Shown here: in pieces, positions 357 to 5,954 of the stretch | How positions within the stretch are numbered: position 1 is the first letter of the stretch | How the letters are laid out: every line of letters begins with the position of its first letter | Source: a virus | Taxonomy: Duplodnaviria; Heunggongvirae; Uroviricota; Caudoviricetes | Length of the DNA stretch: 5,954 nucleotides | Strand: one strand, 5' to 3' | IMG/VR virus record: IMGVR_UViG_2684622669_000017 | The notes under the pieces: model-generated | What the model was told of the DNA's origin: nothing | Database searches by the model: none | The model's input: only the letters and a program-made list of their open reading frames with translations | Position numbers and translations under genes: made by a program

Positions 357-560
357 TCCTCACCTCTACTCACTTTTATTCCTCACTTTTTGTTATTCCC
401 GTCCTGCTCCTCACCTGTTTTTTTTGCTTCTGTAATGCGTTGTTTTGCAATGTATTTTTTATTCCTCACTTTTTGACCTATATACAGGTGAGAAAGTGAG
501 GAATAGCGCTGATTTTTTGTTAAATTACCCGCTATCCTCACTTTTGCTCCTCACTTTTTA
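355..560. repeat. Iteron array with AT-rich core: putative origin of replication of the element
   Basis: Direct copies of (A)TTCCTCAC(T)TTTT(G) at 355-363, 369-377 (partial CTCACTTTT), 378-392, 409-414 (followed by T8 at 418-425), 461-475, 533-546 and 547-559. One inverted copy AAAGTGAGGAAT at 493-504. CACCTG (412-417) and CAGGTG (485-490) form an inverted pair flanking an AT-rich stretch 418-484. Lies immediately 3' of the helicase gene; the last iteron overlaps its stop codon. Confidence 0.7.
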
Positions 561-1973
561 CAGTGGGCGCACATAATCACCGTCAATAGCGATTACGCCG
601 TCGCTTTCCAGCTTGTACAGCCAGCGCCGGAAGTTTTTCATTTCATACCCCAGCTTTTTCATATCGTCGCGGAGAAGGGCGATAGTGCACGCCTCCCCGT
701 GTGCTGTTCGCGTTCTGATGCACTGCCATAGCGCGGCATGATTCTCCGTCTTGTTCCCGGCCTCCTCGATGCGCTCCAGTTCAACAGGTGGGCGCGGCTT
801 ATCCACAACCACCAGCGACGTGATTAACTCCCCGTCAGTGTCGGTAAAAAGCTCCACCACGCGTAAATCGTATGCAGCCTCTTTCAGTTCCTCCGCGTCC
901 TTCATTTTGGTGCAGGAGATAACCAGGGCTTCACTGTCTGCACCTTCACGGCGAATACGGTATTCAGCGTCCAGAGATGCACGAAATGCACTGGAACCAC
1001 GCGCCCCCTTTGTTTCATCCTTGCCGGAATGGTGAACCACCAGCACCGTGGCCCCTGTGCGTCGTTTCAGTTCGTCACATCCACGGATAAACGCCCCCAT
1101 ATCCCGCGCGTCATTTTCATCATTACCGCCAAAACACCGCGCCAGCGTATCCAGAATAATCATGCGTACCGGTTTACCCGTTTCCCTTTCAACCTGGCGG
1201 GAAGCGATGACCATTTCATCAACATCAAACTGGGCTGCCGGAAAAATCGGGCGGTTTACCAGGTACAGATTTTCCACCCGTTTATCATTAACGATTTCCC
1301 ATGCCTTGATACGGCGGGGGACACCAATGCCACCTTCACCGACGACATACATCACCGAACCATGCGCCACCCTGCGGCCTCCCCAGTGACGGCCAGTGGC
1401 AACATGACACGCCCAGGAACACGCGAGGAACGATTTATAGGAACCGCTCGCGCCGTATGTGCTGCACAATGAATTAGCCGGAATCACGCCCTTAACGACA
1501 TAATCAAGCTGTGTGTCGTACCCTGCAGATCCAATGCTCATTGGTAGCGTGGTTTTTCGCTGGCTGTATTGCTCGTCAGTAAGTATTTCCCCGCGCTCTG
1601 CCTGTTCGCGGATCCGTTGCAGGTAGTCGTGCCAGTTCTCCAGCTTCTGGCTGTGCATTCCATCAGGGTAATAATTCGCATCCCGTACACCTGCCGCCGC
1701 CAGCTTTTGCCCGATAGCATTAATATTTGACGGCTTGATGTGGCCTGCCTTGTACAGCCGGACACAATAGCGACCATCGTCGATGATTTTCAGGTCTGCC
1801 AGTTCGTCAAGCTGGCTGTCTCCAAGCCATACGGGTGGCACGTTGTCGCCAGCAAGTCGCCCGTCCTGTTCCTGCCATTGTTTCGCGTGCGCCCAGGCAT
1901 CACTACCCGCAAAAATAATGACTTCGGTCATTTTGTCGTGTGGCTGTTTTTTTAAGTTCGGTGCCAGTTTCAT
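558..1973 (-). CDS. RepA-like replicative helicase / replication initiator, AAA_25 (RecA-fold) ATPase family, with C-terminal putative winged-helix DNA-binding region
   Basis: 471-aa ORF, ATG at 1973..1971 with AGGGT SD-like 5 nt upstream, ATGA overlap with the upstream ORF stop. Motifs: P-loop-like VIPANSLCSTYGASGSYKSFLA (Walker A variant with Y in place of the second Gly, verified on the DNA as TAT), Walker B MIILDTL, and VLVVHHSGKD characteristic of RepA/AAA_25 helicases. Iterons lie immediately downstream. Confidence 0.8.
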   Translation of the reverse strand: MKLAPNLKKQPHDKMTEVIIFAGSDAWAHAKQWQEQDGRLAGDNVPPVWLGDSQLDELADLKIIDDGRYCVRLYKAGHIKPSNINAIGQKLAAAGVRDANYYPDGMHSQKLENWHDYLQRIREQAERGEILTDEQYSQRKTTLPMSIGSAGYDTQLDYVVKGVIPANSLCSTYGASGSYKSFLACSWACHVATGRHWGGRRVAHGSVMYVVGEGGIGVPRRIKAWEIVNDKRVENLYLVNRPIFPAAQFDVDEMVIASRQVERETGKPVRMIILDTLARCFGGNDENDARDMGAFIRGCDELKRRTGATVLVVHHSGKDETKGARGSSAFRASLDAEYRIRREGADSEALVISCTKMKDAEELKEAAYDLRVVELFTDTDGELITSLVVVDKPRPPVELERIEEAGNKTENHAALWQCIRTRTAHGEACTIALLRDDMKKLGYEMKNFRRWLYKLESDGVIAIDGDYVRPL

Positions 1974-2269
1974 TTTTTACCCCTGAATGCGTTAATCATG
2001 TTTTTCATTTTCTGAATATTTGCCCGTGCCTTTGCGTTGCTGGTGGGCTGTTTGCGTGGTGTGGCCTGTATCAGTGAAAAATCACGCCGGAACTGATAAA
2101 CAGGCATCACGCAGTCATAACCGTACCCATCACGGCGGTAAGTAACGCACCGTCCCGCCACGCTTTTAATCGTTACCGTGCCGCCGTAGTTATCCCGGAA
2201 AATATCGCCGGGGCGGATTTCAGGCCGAGCGGGGCCGCTGGCAGTAAAGCCAGAATTTTTCTTTTTCAT
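1970..2269 (-). CDS. Hypothetical protein (99 aa), function unknown; translationally coupled to the helicase gene
   Basis: ORF track; ATG at 2269..2267 preceded by GAGGAA 7 nt upstream; TGA stop overlaps the helicase ATG (ATGA). No recognisable motif. Confidence 0.6.
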   Translation of the reverse strand: MKKKNSGFTASGPARPEIRPGDIFRDNYGGTVTIKSVAGRCVTYRRDGYGYDCVMPVYQFRRDFSLIQATPRKQPTSNAKARANIQKMKNMINAFRGKK

Positions 2270-2339: not shown

Positions 2340-2483
2340 TTAACAGAGTGCTGAAAGCAGAAAGTAAATACCCCCCCGCTCGGTGTTATTTTCGGTTAAT
2401 TCATCCAGTACCGTTTTTAATTCAAGCGCCCTGATTAATGCATTCTCAGAATGAATAAGAACATCGAAAGGGATTTTATCCAT
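2340..2483 (-). CDS. Small hypothetical ORF (47 aa as sequenced); would be 69 aa ending at 2275 if the G7 tract were G8
   Basis: ATG at 2483..2481 with GGAGGA 8 nt upstream, overlapping the stop of the upstream ORF (ATGGATAA). Translation MDKIPFDVLIHSENALIRALELKTVLDELTENNTERGGIYFLLSALC. A +1 change in the homopolymer at 2371-2377 extends the reading frame to a TAA at 2275-2277, directly in front of the RBS of the next gene. Below the ORF-track length cutoff. Confidence 0.4.
   Translation of the reverse strand: MDKIPFDVLIHSENALIRALELKTVLDELTENNTERGGIYFLLSALC
2371..2377. repeat. C7 (plus) / G7 (mRNA) homopolymer inside a coding region; candidate frameshift site
   Basis: cccccccg at 2371-2378; read directly from the sequence. 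Confidence 0.9.
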
Positions 2484-2709
2484 GGCTTACATCCTCCGGG
2501 AATTTTCTTCTGTAACGCGCCTCTGCCACATATTCAGCATAGTCCGACGCAATAACGAGAATATCGCTGCCTGTTCCTGAATGCTCAGTGGTTCCAATTA
2601 AAAAACATGCGGCCTTTATCAGGTCATTAACAACCAGCAACGCATCACCCGCATCATCCGATACGCCATCAAATTCCTGTTTCAGGGCATTAAAACGATC
2701 ATCACGCAT
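2476..2709 (-). CDS. Hypothetical protein (77 aa); possibly the C-terminal part of a gene split by the G9 tract
   Basis: ORF track; ATG at 2709..2707 lies 2 nt after the G9 run (the run could act as an SD but the spacing is short); overlaps the 3' end of the upstream ORF by 28 nt in another frame. Confidence 0.5.
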   Translation of the reverse strand: MRDDRFNALKQEFDGVSDDAGDALLVVNDLIKAACFLIGTTEHSGTGSDILVIASDYAEYVAEARYRRKFPEDVSHG

Positions 2710-2942
2710 AACCCCCCCCCATTTTCACAATCAGCAATCAGGATGGCTTTGGCCTCATTCAGTGCCATATCAGCGGTAAGCTGTGCGTAGGCCAGCGAAT
2801 GGGGGATTATTGCCCCTGTATACTCCGGCTCTCTGGTAATGTGTTTTTCTGCGGTTGCTGCCGTGCATGAAATATCAATCAGCGCGCGCATTAGCGTTCT
2901 GATAGCTTCGTCGGCTGCGTCCGGACGGGTGTTATTGCACAT
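2682..2942 (-). CDS. Hypothetical protein (86 aa); possibly the N-terminal part of a gene split by the G9 tract
   Basis: ORF track; ATG at 2942..2940 with GGAGG 6 nt upstream; start overlaps the stop of the Icd-like gene (ATGTGCAATAA). The final 9 codons after the G9 tract (LCVMIVLMP) look like out-of-frame read-through. Confidence 0.55.
   Translation of the reverse strand: MCNNTRPDAADEAIRTLMRALIDISCTAATAEKHITREPEYTGAIIPHSLAYAQLTADMALNEAKAILIADCENGGGLCVMIVLMP
2712..2720. repeat. C9 (plus) / G9 (mRNA) homopolymer at the junction of two overlapping ORFs; candidate frameshift, slippage or sequencing-error site
   Basis: accccccccc at 2711-2720; read directly from the sequence. One extra G would fuse ORF 2682..2942 to ORF 2476..2709 (...DCENGGG-VMRDDRFNALK...), giving about 151 aa. 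Confidence 0.9.
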
Positions 2943-3138
2943 GGTGCACCTCCTGACGAATACGGGCGGCGAATACCATCACGCAGCCAGCCGGTGATTG
3001 TTGACGGGCTTCCTGTTCGCTGGTGGCCACGATGTGAATCACGCGCGGTTGTGCCGTGCTCAGGGCGATAAAACGCCAGATGTATTTATTCAGGTTGTGC
3101 GAGTCCCGCCCTTGCGGGTGTGTGGTATGATTTCTCAT
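2932..3138 (-). CDS. Small protein (68 aa) resembling Icd-like (host cell-division inhibitor-like) proteins of P4-type elements; first gene of the leftward operon
   Basis: ATG at 3138..3136 with GAGGT 4 nt upstream. Translation MRNHTTHPQGRDSHNLNKYIWRFIALSTAQPRVIHIVATSEQEARQQSPAGCVMVFAARIRQEVHHVQ. The W-R-F-x-A...ATSEQEAR...FAAR pattern matches, from memory, the Icd-like small-protein family. It is the 3' end of a 356-aa ORF-track entry whose upstream part I consider non-coding. Confidence 0.55.
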   Translation of the reverse strand: MRNHTTHPQGRDSHNLNKYIWRFIALSTAQPRVIHIVATSEQEARQQSPAGCVMVFAARIRQEVHHVQ

Positions 3139-3175
3139 AGCTACCTCGATACTTCTGCTATCGTTGGTGGTTAGA

Positions 3176-3209
3176 AGCCCTGCGAGTGGTAACGACACTT
3201 GCGGGGCTT
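3176..3209 (-). promoter_or_regulatory. 13-bp imperfect inverted repeat (AGCCCTGCGAGTG-N8-CACTTGCGGGGCT) in the predicted 5' leader of the leftward operon
   Basis: Read from sequence; 11/13 Watson-Crick matches, and both mismatches become G.U pairs in RNA; lies between the predicted leftward promoter and the Icd-like RBS. Confidence 0.45.
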
Positions 3210-3230
3210 TGCATTTATGCGCCTTGATAA

Positions 3231-3271
3231 TTTTAAGGTGTGGCCCACTATATGTTTTAGGTGTGGTCCAC
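3231..3271. promoter_or_regulatory. Tandem operator-like repeats TTTTA(A)GGTGTGG(C/T)CCAC, each containing a GTGG-N-CCAC palindrome
   Basis: Repeat 1 at 3231-3248 (palindrome GTGGCCCAC 3240-3248), repeat 2 at 3255-3271 (GTGGTCCAC 3263-3271), period about 24 bp. They overlap the -10 and spacer of the predicted leftward promoter and lie upstream of the RHH gene. Confidence 0.55.
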
Positions 3272-3276
3272 GTCAA
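3247..3276 (-). promoter_or_regulatory. Predicted sigma70 promoter for the leftward Icd-like/helicase operon (TTGACG-N18-TATAGT)
   Basis: Minus-strand -35 TTGACG (3276..3271) and -10 TATAGT (3252..3247) with an 18-nt spacer; predicted TSS near 3240; both operator repeats overlap it. Confidence 0.5.
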
Positions 3277-3337
3277 GAGTTTTATTTGTGCTTTTTCTGT
3301 GTATACTGTCCCCCACCAATCCACCAGAGGAATAGAA

Positions 3338-3517
3338 ATGGCAACGGGTACAACAAACGCAAAATCACAAGCTCTAAAGGCTCGTGTACCACACGAAATA
3401 GTAAACGCCATGGAATCAGTGAAAGAATCAGGCGAAAGCACATCACAATTCATCATTACGTCAATGCAAGGCGAGATCAAACGCCGCCAGCGGCGCAAGG
3501 CCAAAGAGCAGGAGTAA
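3338..3517 (+). CDS. Ribbon-helix-helix (Arc/MetJ/CopG-like) DNA-binding protein, 59 aa; candidate repressor of the divergent promoter
   Basis: ATG at 3338 with GAGG 7 nt upstream. Translation MATGTTNAKSQALKARVPHEIVNAMESVKESGESTSQFIITSMQGEIKRRQRRKAKEQE. Beta-strand (LKARVP) - helix A (HEIVNAMESVKES) - G-x-S turn - helix B matches the RHH signature (compare Arc NLRWPREVLDLVRKVAEENGRSVNSEIYQRVME). Palindromic repeats lie upstream. Confidence 0.65.
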   Translation: MATGTTNAKSQALKARVPHEIVNAMESVKESGESTSQFIITSMQGEIKRRQRRKAKEQE

Positions 3518-3574
3518 CCATCACCAGCGCCGTGGTGTGAGTAACTACGGCGCATTGCTATGCAGGACAACACA

Positions 3575-3748
3575 ATGACCGATAAAGAATTGACCAAAAC
3601 ATTATCACCGGCACGGAAAAGACGGCGCAGAAAGATAGAACATGAATCAGAAAGATTCGCACCTTGTTCGTTTGCTCTTGAGAAATTCCTTAAAGAGCAC
3701 AGGAAAAAGCTCTCGTTGCAAACCTTGGAACGAACCAAATCTGACTGA
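3575..3748 (+). CDS. Small basic protein (57 aa; 62 aa if translation starts at the upstream ATG 3560), function unknown
   Basis: ATG at 3575 preceded by AGGA (3564-3567) with 7-nt spacing; the ORF-track start at 3560 lacks an SD. Translation MTDKELTKTLSPARKRRRRKIEHESERFAPCSFALEKFLKEHRKKLSLQTLERTKSD; same frame as the RHH gene but separated by two stop codons. Confidence 0.45.
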   Translation: MTDKELTKTLSPARKRRRRKIEHESERFAPCSFALEKFLKEHRKKLSLQTLERTKSD

Positions 3749-3827
3749 TCACATTGCCCACCAGCCGCAAATGTGGCATTGTTGGTGATGCTCATACGTT
3801 GGGGATAACGTGTAGCTTGTGTCGAGG

Positions 3828-3855
3828 GGCCACCGTAGCGGTTGGCCTTTGTTTT
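3828..3855 (+). terminator. Probable intrinsic terminator of the RHH/small-protein operon
   Basis: Hairpin GGCCACCG-tag-CGGTTGGCC (8 bp with one bulge) followed by TTTGTTTT (3848-3855). Confidence 0.45.
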
Positions 3856-3872
3856 GCCTGTTATCCGGCAAT

Positions 3873-3902
3873 TGTGGCGCTTCGCCACACGGTTGATATA
3901 AT
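3873..3902 (+). promoter_or_regulatory. Extended -10 promoter (TGaTATAAT at 3894-3902) overlapped by a perfect 7-bp-arm palindrome TGTGGCG-CTT-CGCCACA (3873-3889)
   Basis: Perfect TATAAT at 3897-3902 preceded by TG at 3894-3895; -35 is weak (TTGTGG 3872-3877, 19-nt spacer); the palindrome occupies the -35/spacer region like an operator. Confidence 0.4.
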
Positions 3903-3908
3903 TCCCCT

Positions 3909-3979
3909 GCACTGATCCATTTTTTTCGCAGCAGGTTAATTGTTCGCAAGGGCGCTCCGGTAACGGGGCGCTTTTTGTT
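3909..3979 (+). ncRNA. Candidate small RNA (about 70 nt) between its own promoter and an intrinsic terminator
   Basis: Predicted TSS about 7 nt after the TATAAT; transcript ends at the 3952-3979 terminator; no ORF with an RBS in between; contains a possible 5' hairpin CCTGC...GCAGG. Entirely inferential. Confidence 0.3.
3952..3979 (+). terminator. Intrinsic terminator (plus strand): GC-rich 8-bp stem with GUAA tetraloop and U-tract
   Basis: GCGCTCCG-gtaa-CGGGGCGC (one U.G pair) followed by TTTTTGTT (3972-3979). On the minus strand the hairpin is not followed by a T-run, so it is unidirectional. Confidence 0.55.
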
Positions 3980-4006
3980 ATGTTCATCGCGTTACGCCTC
4001 ACACCA

Positions 4007-4213
4007 TTACGCAGCCGTTCCGCGCGCTTCTTCCTCGCGCTCTTTCAGCCAGGCCAGCACTTCATCTTCATACCAGCCAACACGACGCAGACCGATTTTG
4101 AATCCTTTCGGGAATTTTCCGGCGTTGATCATGTCCTGTAGCGAACTGTCTGCCTTGATGCGCAGAATATTTTTTACTTCCTGACGGGTAAGTATTTTTC
4201 TGATTGTTTCCAC
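4007..4213 (-). CDS. alpA: AlpA-family phage regulatory protein (transcriptional activator / excisionase-like, winged HTH)
   Basis: 68-aa ORF starting at GTG 4213..4211 with GAGGT 8 nt upstream. Translation ...ILTRQEVKNILRIKADSSLQDMINAGKFPKGFKIGLRRVGWYEDEVLAWLKER aligns with E. coli AlpA motifs (FPK, VGW, E-x-E-[IV]-x-x-W-L). Confidence 0.8.
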   Translation of the reverse strand: METIRKILTRQEVKNILRIKADSSLQDMINAGKFPKGFKIGLRRVGWYEDEVLAWLKEREEEARGTAA

Positions 4214-4712: not shown

Positions 4713-5954
4713 TTACACGGCACGGATACCCCTTTTACCACTGGCTATGGTCACTCCGGTAGCTGCGGCCTCTACAAATTCCCCCCACCAGCGCATAAGC
4801 ACCACGCGCTTTTCCAGGTAGTTACTTCGGTTATATGCTCGCCTTACCTCGTTCGTGTCCACGTGTGCGAGTGCGGCCTCGATTACGTCCGGCTCGAATC
4901 CTTCCTCGTTCGCTGCTGTACTGAATATGGCGCGTAATCCGTGAGACACCAGCACACCAGCGTAACCCATCCGGCGTAATGCAGCGTTAGCGGTCTGGCT
5001 GCTCATTGGTAGCATTGGATTTTTAAGGCTGGGAAAAACATGTTCCCTGTGTGCGCTGATTGGCTTCATGGTTTCCAGTACAGCCATAGCCTGACCGCAA
5101 AGGGGGATCACATGGTCACGGCGCATCTTCATGCGTCCGGCTGGAATCGTCCAGGTTTCGGCATCGAGATCTATTTCTTCCCAGCGTGCGGCGGCTGCTT
5201 CGGCTGGGCGTGCTACGGTCAACAGTTGCCACTCGATCAGCAATCTGGTTTGCCGTTCTATGCTGGCGACCGATAAATCGTGCATTAGCTGCGGTAGCTG
5301 TTCCGGTCGGATGGTTGGCATGTGCTTTTTGGTGGGTGAGGGAAATGCCTTGCGGACGTTAGCAGCGGTGTTGATGTCAATCAGCCCACTGTTGGCGGCA
5401 AAATCCATCACTTCATTGATGCGCTGCAAAACGCGTTTCAGAGTTTCCAGGTTGCCGCGTGCTTTAATGGGTGTGAGTATCTCAACAAAGCGGCGAGCGG
5501 TGAGGGTATCTATTGGCGTTTTTCCGATGTACGGGAATACGTATTTTTCCATGGATCGCCAGATATCCTTAATCGTGTTGTAAGCGAGATTCTGGCCTTT
5601 TTTCATCTCGTACCAGTCAGAGGCAACTTTTTCGAACGTGTTGCCCTTTTTCCGACTCTCTGCTTCACGTTTCCGGCGTTCGTGGTCCTGTGGGTCAACT
5701 CCCTTCGCTATGAGTGACCTGTATTCATTCCGTCGTTCTCTGGCATCGGACAGGGAAACATCATTCAGCGATCCGAGGCTGATGATAGTCCGTTTTTTAT
5801 CTGCCGGGCGGTAGTACGTAAAACGCCAGATTTTTGATCCGGAGGGTTTCACCAGAAGAAATAATCCTCCGCCATCCTGCAGGGTGTATTCCTTTTCCCC
5901 TGGTCGTGCGTTTTTGATCTCCGTAATAGTTAGTGGGGTGGTTTTTCGTGCCAT
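4713..5954 (-). CDS. int: Site-specific tyrosine recombinase/integrase, P4 family (N-terminal arm-binding DUF4102-type domain plus catalytic domain)
   Basis: 413-aa ORF; ATG is the last three nucleotides of the window (5954..5952); TAA at 4715..4713. N-terminus MARKTTPLTITEIKNARPGEKEYTLQDGGGLFLLVKPSGSKIWRFTYY is typical of P4-type integrases (compare E. coli IntA). Catalytic motifs are present: R in TVARPAE, HGLRAIF (H-x-x-R), and tyrosine in RRAYNRSNY. Confidence 0.92.
   Translation of the reverse strand: MARKTTPLTITEIKNARPGEKEYTLQDGGGLFLLVKPSGSKIWRFTYYRPADKKRTIISLGSLNDVSLSDARERRNEYRSLIAKGVDPQDHERRKREAESRKKGNTFEKVASDWYEMKKGQNLAYNTIKDIWRSMEKYVFPYIGKTPIDTLTARRFVEILTPIKARGNLETLKRVLQRINEVMDFAANSGLIDINTAANVRKAFPSPTKKHMPTIRPEQLPQLMHDLSVASIERQTRLLIEWQLLTVARPAEAAAARWEEIDLDAETWTIPAGRMKMRRDHVIPLCGQAMAVLETMKPISAHREHVFPSLKNPMLPMSSQTANAALRRMGYAGVLVSHGLRAIFSTAANEEGFEPDVIEAALAHVDTNEVRRAYNRSNYLEKRVVLMRWWGEFVEAAATGVTIASGKRGIRAV

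Follow-up and report, generated by a model that had tools for sequence, protein, structure and literature searches.

Long poly-G tracts in coding sequence whose length differs among close relatives are known from simple sequence repeat (SSR) phase variation, as in the poly-G loci of Neisseria and Campylobacter. In C-terminal phase variation, described for Helicobacter canadensis (PMC2823697), a change of ±1 nt alters the reading frame and the C-terminus of a protein without abolishing the protein. Translationally coupled gene pairs overlap at their stop and start codons (ATGNNTGA-type), and in gene fusion/fission ('Rosetta stone') pairs the same two domains are found either as adjacent genes or as one polypeptide with a flexible linker. 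At programmed slippage sites (dnaX, the A-runs of IS elements, Shigella mxiE) a homopolymer sits at the junction of overlapping frames, and a 1-nt shift would fuse them. Gram-negative phage-inducible chromosomal islands (PICIs; EcCICFT073-like and 11capE-type, PMC10111431), finally, carry int, alpA, an operon of small genes and a replication helicase or primase. The locus described here resembles each of these systems in part. It lies in a stretch of 5,954 nucleotides from IMG/VR virus record IMGVR_UViG_2684622669_000017 (Caudoviricetes), which was analysed as a whole and is referred to as the window, and consists of a run of nine G residues (poly-G run 1) at the junction of two small open reading frames (ORFs), ORF-N and ORF-C. 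Alleles of the run are named after their length (G9 in the window).

Like the SSR loci, poly-G run 1 is a long coding poly-G of variable length; unlike them, it resides in what is best read as a phage satellite of a mismatch-repair-proficient host, Escherichia coli, it has a three-way outcome rather than ON and OFF states, and its allele frequencies resemble mutational spread around G8 rather than selected switching. The G8 allele, distant homologues and the junction of ORF-C with the following gene, ORF3, have the geometry of coupled overlapping pairs, with the run located at the Shine-Dalgarno (SD) position and pairing well with the anti-SD sequence; the differences are that this SD would have grown to a homopolymer of 7-11 nt beside the start codon and that the coupling geometry is unstable. 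Whereas 'Rosetta stone' fusions are rare, fixed events, those seen here are repeated and reversible single-nucleotide events within one species, which makes the locus a clean natural case of one-nucleotide gene fusion/fission at a frame-tolerant position. In contrast to the programmed slippage sites, the homopolymer is made of G and not of A or T, no frame relation is fixed, no stimulatory structure is present, the downstream ORF has its own start, and in-frame alleles are common. With Gram-negative PICIs the element shares the gene order given above as well as a related locus of about 12.7 kb with capsid genes, and it resides on the E. coli chromosome and is missing from phage records; the window covers the left arm only, known here from its genes, and N and C have no described PICI role. 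In the literature on PICIs and satellites with homopolymers, poly-G or phase variation, no paper describing this run was found. The locus belongs to a known class, homopolymer length polymorphism with C-terminal switching (PMC2823697), in an undescribed setting, the early operon of an E. coli PICI. We regard the run as probably being an expanded SD and glycine-codon G tract, that is, a slippage hotspot at a place where any reading frame is tolerated.

On the coding (minus) strand the sequence across the junction reads ...GATTGTGAAAAT-GGGGGGGGG-TTATGCGTGATGAT.... Poly-G run 1 is C9 at positions 2712-2720 of the plus strand and G9 in the mRNA, as is read directly from the window and as an initial annotation of this DNA had reported. 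The same annotation placed the run in the overlap of the two ORFs. It is indeed at the ORF junction, yet it adjoins the 28-nt overlap (2682-2709) on the 5' side and ends 2 nt before the ATG of ORF-C (2707-2709). ORF-N (2682-2942, minus strand; 86 aa in the G9 state) is composed of an N domain of 74 codons (2721-2942), three glycine codons contributed by the run, and an out-of-frame tail, LCVMIVLMP, before the stop codon; these are the nine further codons that had been noticed for the upstream ORF. ORF-C (2476-2709, minus strand; 77 aa) begins at its own ATG and is intact at any run length. One additional G joins the two frames (...CENGGGVMRDDRF...), so the clean fusion predicted for ten Gs is borne out; its product has 155 aa, or 154 aa with G7, and not about 151 aa. 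The run had also been called unusually long, and this holds: at the composition of the window, 0.07 homopolymers of nine are expected, and at least one was present in nine of 200 shuffled sequences. Judged from the window by itself, the departure from chance is marginal. All related loci examined have a poly-G run at the orthologous site, and poly-G run 1 is therefore not a chance feature. The only other G or C run of at least 7 in the window is G7 at 2371-2377 (poly-G run 2), and both are G on the mRNA strand.

Across more than 200 related loci from IMG/VR, Illumina metagenomes and complete E. coli genomes, the orthologous run varies from G7 to G11. Run lengths were scanned with exact flanks and a free gap between them. 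In a pattern-scan set of 90 (85 IMG/VR loci, four complete-genome loci and the window itself) there were 24 G7, 34 G8, 21 G9, 5 G10, 2 G11 and 4 interrupted runs. Metagenome contigs (52, mostly SPAdes/Illumina) had 10 G7, 27 G8, 12 G9, 1 G10, no G11 and 2 interrupted runs. Complete genomes with exact flanks (55 of 78 matching records, searched for G7-G10 with interrupted runs uncounted) had 23 G7, 19 G8, 9 G9 and 4 G10. When pure runs were pooled (188 loci; 33 G7, 61 G8, 30 G9, 5 G10, 2 G11), the lengths formed a single peak at 8, with no dip or preference at any reading frame. A second scan of IMG/VR was anchored on the ORF-C start alone and thus carried no bias toward any run. ORF-N was located upstream in 91 of the 133 loci found in this way; 42 of these had the G8 frame and 19 the G9 frame, and the other 30, with G7, G10 or a stable G4, were fused. 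The window's own length, G9, makes up 16-23% of loci depending on the set (21/90 in the pattern scan, 18/85 in IMG/VR, 12/52 in metagenomes, 9/55 in complete genomes). The NCBI prokaryotic genome annotation pipeline (PGAP) calls a single coding sequence (CDS) in G7 and G10 alleles and two CDSs in G8 and G9 alleles.

These data do not agree with the view of the initial annotation that one gene had been split in two. The commonest allele, G8, consists of two separate genes that overlap as ATGCGTGA, and the genes are separate in distant relatives as well. It had also been asked whether the fused form is the norm in homologous islands; comparison showed it to be a frequent minority, with a share of about 21-33% in the Illumina-type sets and 27 of the 55 exact-flank complete genomes.

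Each length class has its own coding outcome. In G8 and G11 the junction is GAA AAT GGG GGG GGT TAT GCG TGA, N ends in ...ENGGGYA, and its stop codon overlaps the ORF-C ATG by 8 nt, which leaves two genes. In G7 and G10, N and C are fused through a GG(G)V linker; more than 100 natural protein clusters (90% identity) have the corresponding lengths of 154 or 155 aa, and CENGGV and CENGGGV are about equally represented among them. In G9 and G12, the state of the window, N receives a hydrophobic tail of nine residues and stops 25 nt inside ORF-C, and C keeps its own start. All 134 loci inspected yielded an ORF-N of 67-74 codons, and ORF-C was of full length (73-79 aa) in 126 of them. In codon alignments, the proportions of synonymous (pS) and nonsynonymous (pN) differences were 0.38 and 0.19 for ORF-N (pN/pS 0.51; 0.47-0.52 across the three frame classes) and 0.37 and 0.16 for ORF-C (pN/pS 0.42; 0.41-0.45 across the classes). 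Both halves are under moderate purifying selection at any run length. On balance, the window is best taken as one of three common natural states, the third-commonest, and not as a disrupted gene.

The speed at which the run changes was estimated from the 85 loci with complete flanks, which represent 68 distinct haplotypes of the 458-nt flanking sequence. Pairs with identical flanks differed in run length in 38% of cases, and pairs with 1-5 flank differences shared a run length no more often than random pairs did; run length was already random between elements with 1-2 base differences in the flanks. The run hence changes no more slowly than the 458 flanking sites taken together. In E. coli, indel rates climb exponentially with homopolymer length, and 8-bp G·C runs in tRNA genes of strain K-12 have been described as outliers (PMC8510543). 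The observed change in run length fits this published rule.

To trace the history of the arrangement, distant relatives were collected. A full HMMER search of 1.84 billion representative proteins (library clustered at 50% identity) returned 51 relatives, most of which are free-standing and either N-like (72-93 aa) or C-like (71-78 aa). In the C-like relatives the first Met aligns with residue 79 of the fusion, and fusions are few (e.g. P0124 and P0170). The PHROGs collection holds separate families for N (phrog_5146) and C (phrog_24341) and one for the fused form (phrog_2512), all of unknown function; ORF-N matches phrog_5146 and the N-terminal half of phrog_2512, and ORF-C matches phrog_24341 and the C-terminal half. 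In two loci, L202 and L203, the distant N-like genes end in ...GAHHA* and ...GVDHA* and overlap the next gene by 8 nt as ATGCCTAA or ATGCGTAG (ATGCNTAR). A G5 run is located there 7 nt before the ATG of the next gene, and no long G run is present. Since distant N-like and C-like relatives are separate and share the same overlap, the overlapping two-gene arrangement is ancestral and the long G run an expanded SD-like G5. A single gene as the ancestral state was considered and rejected, as the distant relatives are separate overlapping genes.

ORF-C is also found behind a different upstream gene (...GYRVIQGG(G)KHA*), namely in 42 IMG/VR loci and in Escherichia ruysiae. The junction of these loci is ...TCAG-Gn-TAAAC-ATGCGTGA with G6-G10; the mode, G6, gives the coupled overlap, and G7-G10 are minorities. 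Judging from these junctions, the G run travels with the start of ORF-C. The arrangement can be inspected in L148 (2440-2520), and IMG/VR examples are L150, L171, L152 and L176. As a separate observation, protein P0127 resembles a fusion made by deletion between repeated CGTGATGAT motifs.

The predicted pairing of poly-G run 1 with the anti-SD at the 3' end of 16S rRNA amounts to -11.1 kcal/mol, compared with -11.6 kcal/mol for the AGGAGG before ORF-N, and the other starts of the operon pair more weakly (-6 to -9.5 kcal/mol). In the window sequence, no SD-like element other than the run was found before the ORF-C ATG. We infer that poly-G run 1 acts as the SD of ORF-C. In the window the overlap of the two ORFs measures 28 nt instead of 8 nt, and the SD-like pairing is kept. 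Coupled stop/start overlaps with an SD inside the upstream gene are present in the G8 and G11 alleles, in L202 and L203, and at the C/ORF3 junction. Further, the run is surrounded by a near-invariant nucleotide island (2680-2738, minus strand; about -18 to +32 nt), whose diversity, third codon positions included, is 0.00-0.03 as compared to 0.3-0.47 in the body of ORF-N; in this comparison about 20 nt on the downstream side were fixed by the search anchor, and the upstream side was free except for a 6-nt filter directly before the run. The N and C alleles on either side of it are highly diverse and seem to have been reshuffled. Probably the island serves to initiate translation of ORF-C, marks a site where mosaic alleles recombined, or both.

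Structure prediction with AlphaFold2 (alignment of 71 sequences) yielded a helical hairpin for N (residues 9-73; predicted local distance difference test, pLDDT, about 90), a linker at the glycine run (residues 76-82, pLDDT below 50) and three helices for C (pLDDT about 72). A Foldseek search of this model against the PDB returned generic helical hairpins only (E ≥ 0.87), and none of Pfam, NCBIfam and PADLOC had a family to which N, C, ORF3 or the fusion could be assigned. That fusion and fission have occurred repeatedly suggests that N and C act together.

A scheme that would connect these findings starts from a G tract where N and C, two small genes with coupled translation, meet in the early operon of a PICI-type satellite with the order icd-like gene, N, C, ORF3, DUF4222 gene and helicase. 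Replication slippage would alter the length of the tract faster than point substitutions build up nearby. As the run follows the folded part of N and precedes the ATG of C, both domains would be made in every frame. G8 and G11 would represent the ancestral coupled state, and G7 and G10 a fusion via the disordered GG(G)V linker; in G9, C would be translated from its own ATG with the G run as ribosome-binding site. Judged from allele frequencies only, the three states may be nearly neutral.

Several points weigh against this scheme. The two domains are not packed confidently in the structural model (predicted template modelling score 0.45). In clone series 2020S05-013 six of six genomes had G7, which means no change in length at the shortest length. 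About 88% of alleles have no interruption in the run, as against a synonymous diversity of about 0.38 elsewhere. G7 was found more often in complete genomes than in the Illumina-type sets, and in long-read assemblies base-calling error could explain some of the differences in length. The hydrophobic tail of nine residues, or the loss of termination-reinitiation coupling, could have real effects in G9, and the run could have been miscounted in the draft assembly GCA_001515025.1. Finally, a variable run in ORF3 that has no apparent SD role, taken together with the uninterrupted state of poly-G run 1, could mean that there is selection for mutability.

The latter point is the core of an alternative that we consider possible although unlikely, i.e. 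that the locus is an adaptive contingency locus. Poly-G run 1 and the run in ORF3 would then be kept for their useful mutability, to switch the satellite population at random among separate, fused and tail-extended N/C forms and between a long and a short ORF3, and thereby diversify the interaction with helper or host. ORF3 (2340-2483, minus strand; 47 aa in the window) overlaps the stop codon of ORF-C by 8 nt (ATGGATAA) and is cut short by the G7 of poly-G run 2 (2371-2377, minus strand), which lies inside it. With G8 the frame would be open to position 2275 (69 aa), and ORF3 of 68-69 aa is annotated in L003 and L004, which have G8 or G5 alleles. In 19 scored loci, poly-G run 2 varied from G5 to G10, with ORF3 being of full length (68-69 aa) in seven and truncated (47-52 aa) in 12, the window included. 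An SD role does not explain this run, and this is the main argument for taking a contingency locus seriously. Other support comes from the scarcity of interruptions in poly-G run 1 despite synonymous diversity, from its random length between near-identical elements, and from the published precedent of phase variation in which homopolymers switch the C-terminus (PMC2823697). Moreover, long G runs are in excess on the sense strand: on the operon strand of 188 related loci (L005-L200), the runs of at least 7 comprised 188 G runs versus 4 C runs, and more recurrent variable runs follow downstream. The latter are located about 2.7-5.4 kb downstream of ORF-C; examples are GATGGGTAGA-G7/8-AGGCACAA and CGATAATTAC-G8/10-ATATGCCA.

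The distribution of alleles speaks against such an adaptive function, as no frame is enriched and the single-peaked lengths are those expected from mutation around an ancestral G8. Conservation extends to the entire junction island and is not confined to the run, E. coli is proficient in mismatch repair, the clone series was without switching, and the G bias of the sense strand may reflect avoidance of poly-proline (CCC) runs. The run does share with SSR contingency loci that it lies within or next to a coding region and changes its length faster than its flanks do. An ON/OFF switch of expression was not found, both ORFs being open with their own starts in three frames and under equal purifying selection. 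Thus, of the slipped-strand phase variation raised by the initial annotation, hypervariable length among near-identical elements has been recovered and the ON/OFF contrast has not. More doubtful is the broader proposal that PICI satellites of E. coli carry several contingency loci (N/C, ORF3 and the further sense-strand runs) and so generate combinatorial variants of the early operon as a form of bet-hedging. If an adaptive role were true, simple-sequence contingency loci would join the toolkit of phage satellites. For phage satellites the locus would be the first SSR phase-variation system on record, an unusual one given the mismatch-repair-proficient host, and a bet-hedging device in the conflict between satellite, helper and host.

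Whether the G9 of the window is real at all was considered next to the frame-tolerant slippage hotspot favoured here. A true run of G8 or G10 that was miscounted in sequencing or assembly is improbable. Homopolymers of at least 8 are error-prone on several platforms, the window derives from a contig end of a draft whole-genome shotgun assembly, and the exact 86-aa protein with the tail is present on one contig record only. A search with the whole window found no element of at least 99% identity in complete E. coli genomes (the best had 96% identity over 91% of the window), so that the G9 of the window had no twin for comparison. G9 recurs, however, in the pattern-scan, metagenome and complete-genome sets alike, and it is annotated as two PGAP CDSs in the independent complete genomes L002 and L004. 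As G9 is a natural allele elsewhere, no sequencing error is required to account for it here. In thousands of E. coli genomes, annotation is bound to treat the N/C junction, like the second run located 340 nt further downstream, now as one gene, now as two or as a 'frameshifted' gene, and recognition of G7-G11 as natural alleles guards against false pseudogene calls and false 'corrections'.

Programmed recoding, which the initial annotation had listed as a site of transcriptional or translational slippage, is quite improbable. It would provide a fixed ratio of N to N-C through a -1 shift in G9 or a +1 shift in G8, brought about by ribosomal frameshifting on G GGG GGG or by slippage of RNA polymerase on C9. 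Homopolymers of nine are able to support transcriptional slippage, a -1 shift in G9 would let tRNA-Gly re-pair perfectly and enter the frame of C, and both short and fused products occur naturally. Recoding sites keep a fixed frame relation, though, whereas all three frames are common here and in-frame fusions are natural. Folding of the RNA from 2630-2760 (minus strand) gave z = -0.28 relative to shuffled sequences, hence no significant structure near the run or downstream of it. To our knowledge, G:C homopolymers are not classical slippery or slippage motifs in E. coli, and recoding is not needed since ORF-C has its own ATG and an SD-like run. A conserved recoding site was rejected on account of the three common frames and the missing structure; slippage at a low level on G8 or G9 may take place and would blur the states further. 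The last alternative, a decaying pseudogene in which a former 155-aa gene was frameshifted and now drifts, is very improbable and was rejected, contrary to the 'true pseudogene' considered at the outset: a fused form exists and ORF3 is truncated in the window too, but equal purifying selection on the intact halves in all frame classes (pN/pS 0.4-0.5) excludes it, distant relatives are separate genes, and the modal G8 is a canonical coupled pair.

The genes around the run were then assigned. The first recognisable gene of the operon is an Icd-like gene (2932-3138, minus strand; 68 aa; NCBIfam NF033153, E = 5e-20), which is likewise annotated by PGAP in L001-L004. There is an 11-nt overlap between its stop and the start of ORF-N, and its 3' end contains the AGGAGG of ORF-N. 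A mechanical ORF of 356 aa (2932-4002, minus strand) does not represent a gene; just the final 68 codons (2932-3138) correspond to the Icd-like protein. A sigma-70-like match, TTGACG-18-TATAGT (3247-3276, minus strand), lies 5' of the Icd-like gene and is, as a consensus match alone, a candidate operon promoter. Downstream in the same operon are a DUF4222 gene (1970-2269, minus strand; Pfam PF13973, E = 2e-24) and a gene for a RepA-like replicative helicase (AAA_25; 558-1973, minus strand; Pfam PF13481, E = 2e-44), which also matches phrog_2850 and primase/helicase families of PHROGs. A gene for an AlpA-family regulator or excisionase (4007-4213, minus strand; Pfam PF05930, and PHROG excisionase/transcriptional regulator families) and one for a tyrosine integrase (4713-5954, minus strand; Pfam Arm-DNA-bind_3, Phage_int_M and Phage_integrase, from the source contig) are located upstream. 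The genes for integrase, AlpA, the Icd-like protein, ORF-N, ORF-C, ORF3, DUF4222 and the helicase are all on the minus strand. The small genes of the operon are linked by stop/start overlaps with SD-like sequences inside each preceding gene, the Icd/N junction being AGGAGG...ATGTGCAATAA and the C/ORF3 junction GGAGGA...ATGGATAA. A search of the window against Rfam found nothing.

With the integrase as marker, the window can be recognised from its gene content as an integrative element's left arm. The layout is that of a PICI, with int and alpA followed by a same-strand operon that ends in a replication gene. A related locus of 12.7 kb (L010) contains genes for a lambda E-like capsid protein, a D-like decoration protein, an Nu1-like protein, SSB and a D5 primase, a set that matches the Gram-negative PICI layout in PMC10111431. 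The element is best read as an E. coli phage satellite of the Gram-negative PICI type. Of 5426 complete E. coli genomes, 1942 contain related DNA, and the fused N-C protein had no tblastn match among 50,697 GenBank phage records. In a one-genome-per-species collection, an alignment-based locus search returned just two loci, in E. ruysiae and Shigella flexneri. At the similarity searched, the N/C family thus appears to be essentially confined to Escherichia and Shigella. By position and length, the left-arm genes match contig BBWB01000012.1 of GCA_001515025.1 (1-5942), which is the end of a contig in a draft assembly.

Comparison of the loci shows elements of this type to be strongly mosaic. 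In L001 (strain ETEC6335; 1700-2400), about 200 bp that the window lacks, with a CDS of their own (70 aa), come before the fused G10 gene, and the alignment of L001 with the window falls into two pieces, a pattern that shows more indel mosaicism upstream of ORF-N. On the plus strand of the window, an ORF at 3164-3517 matches phrog_949 with its C-terminal 59 aa, and a YlcI/YnfO-family protein is annotated at this place in relatives.

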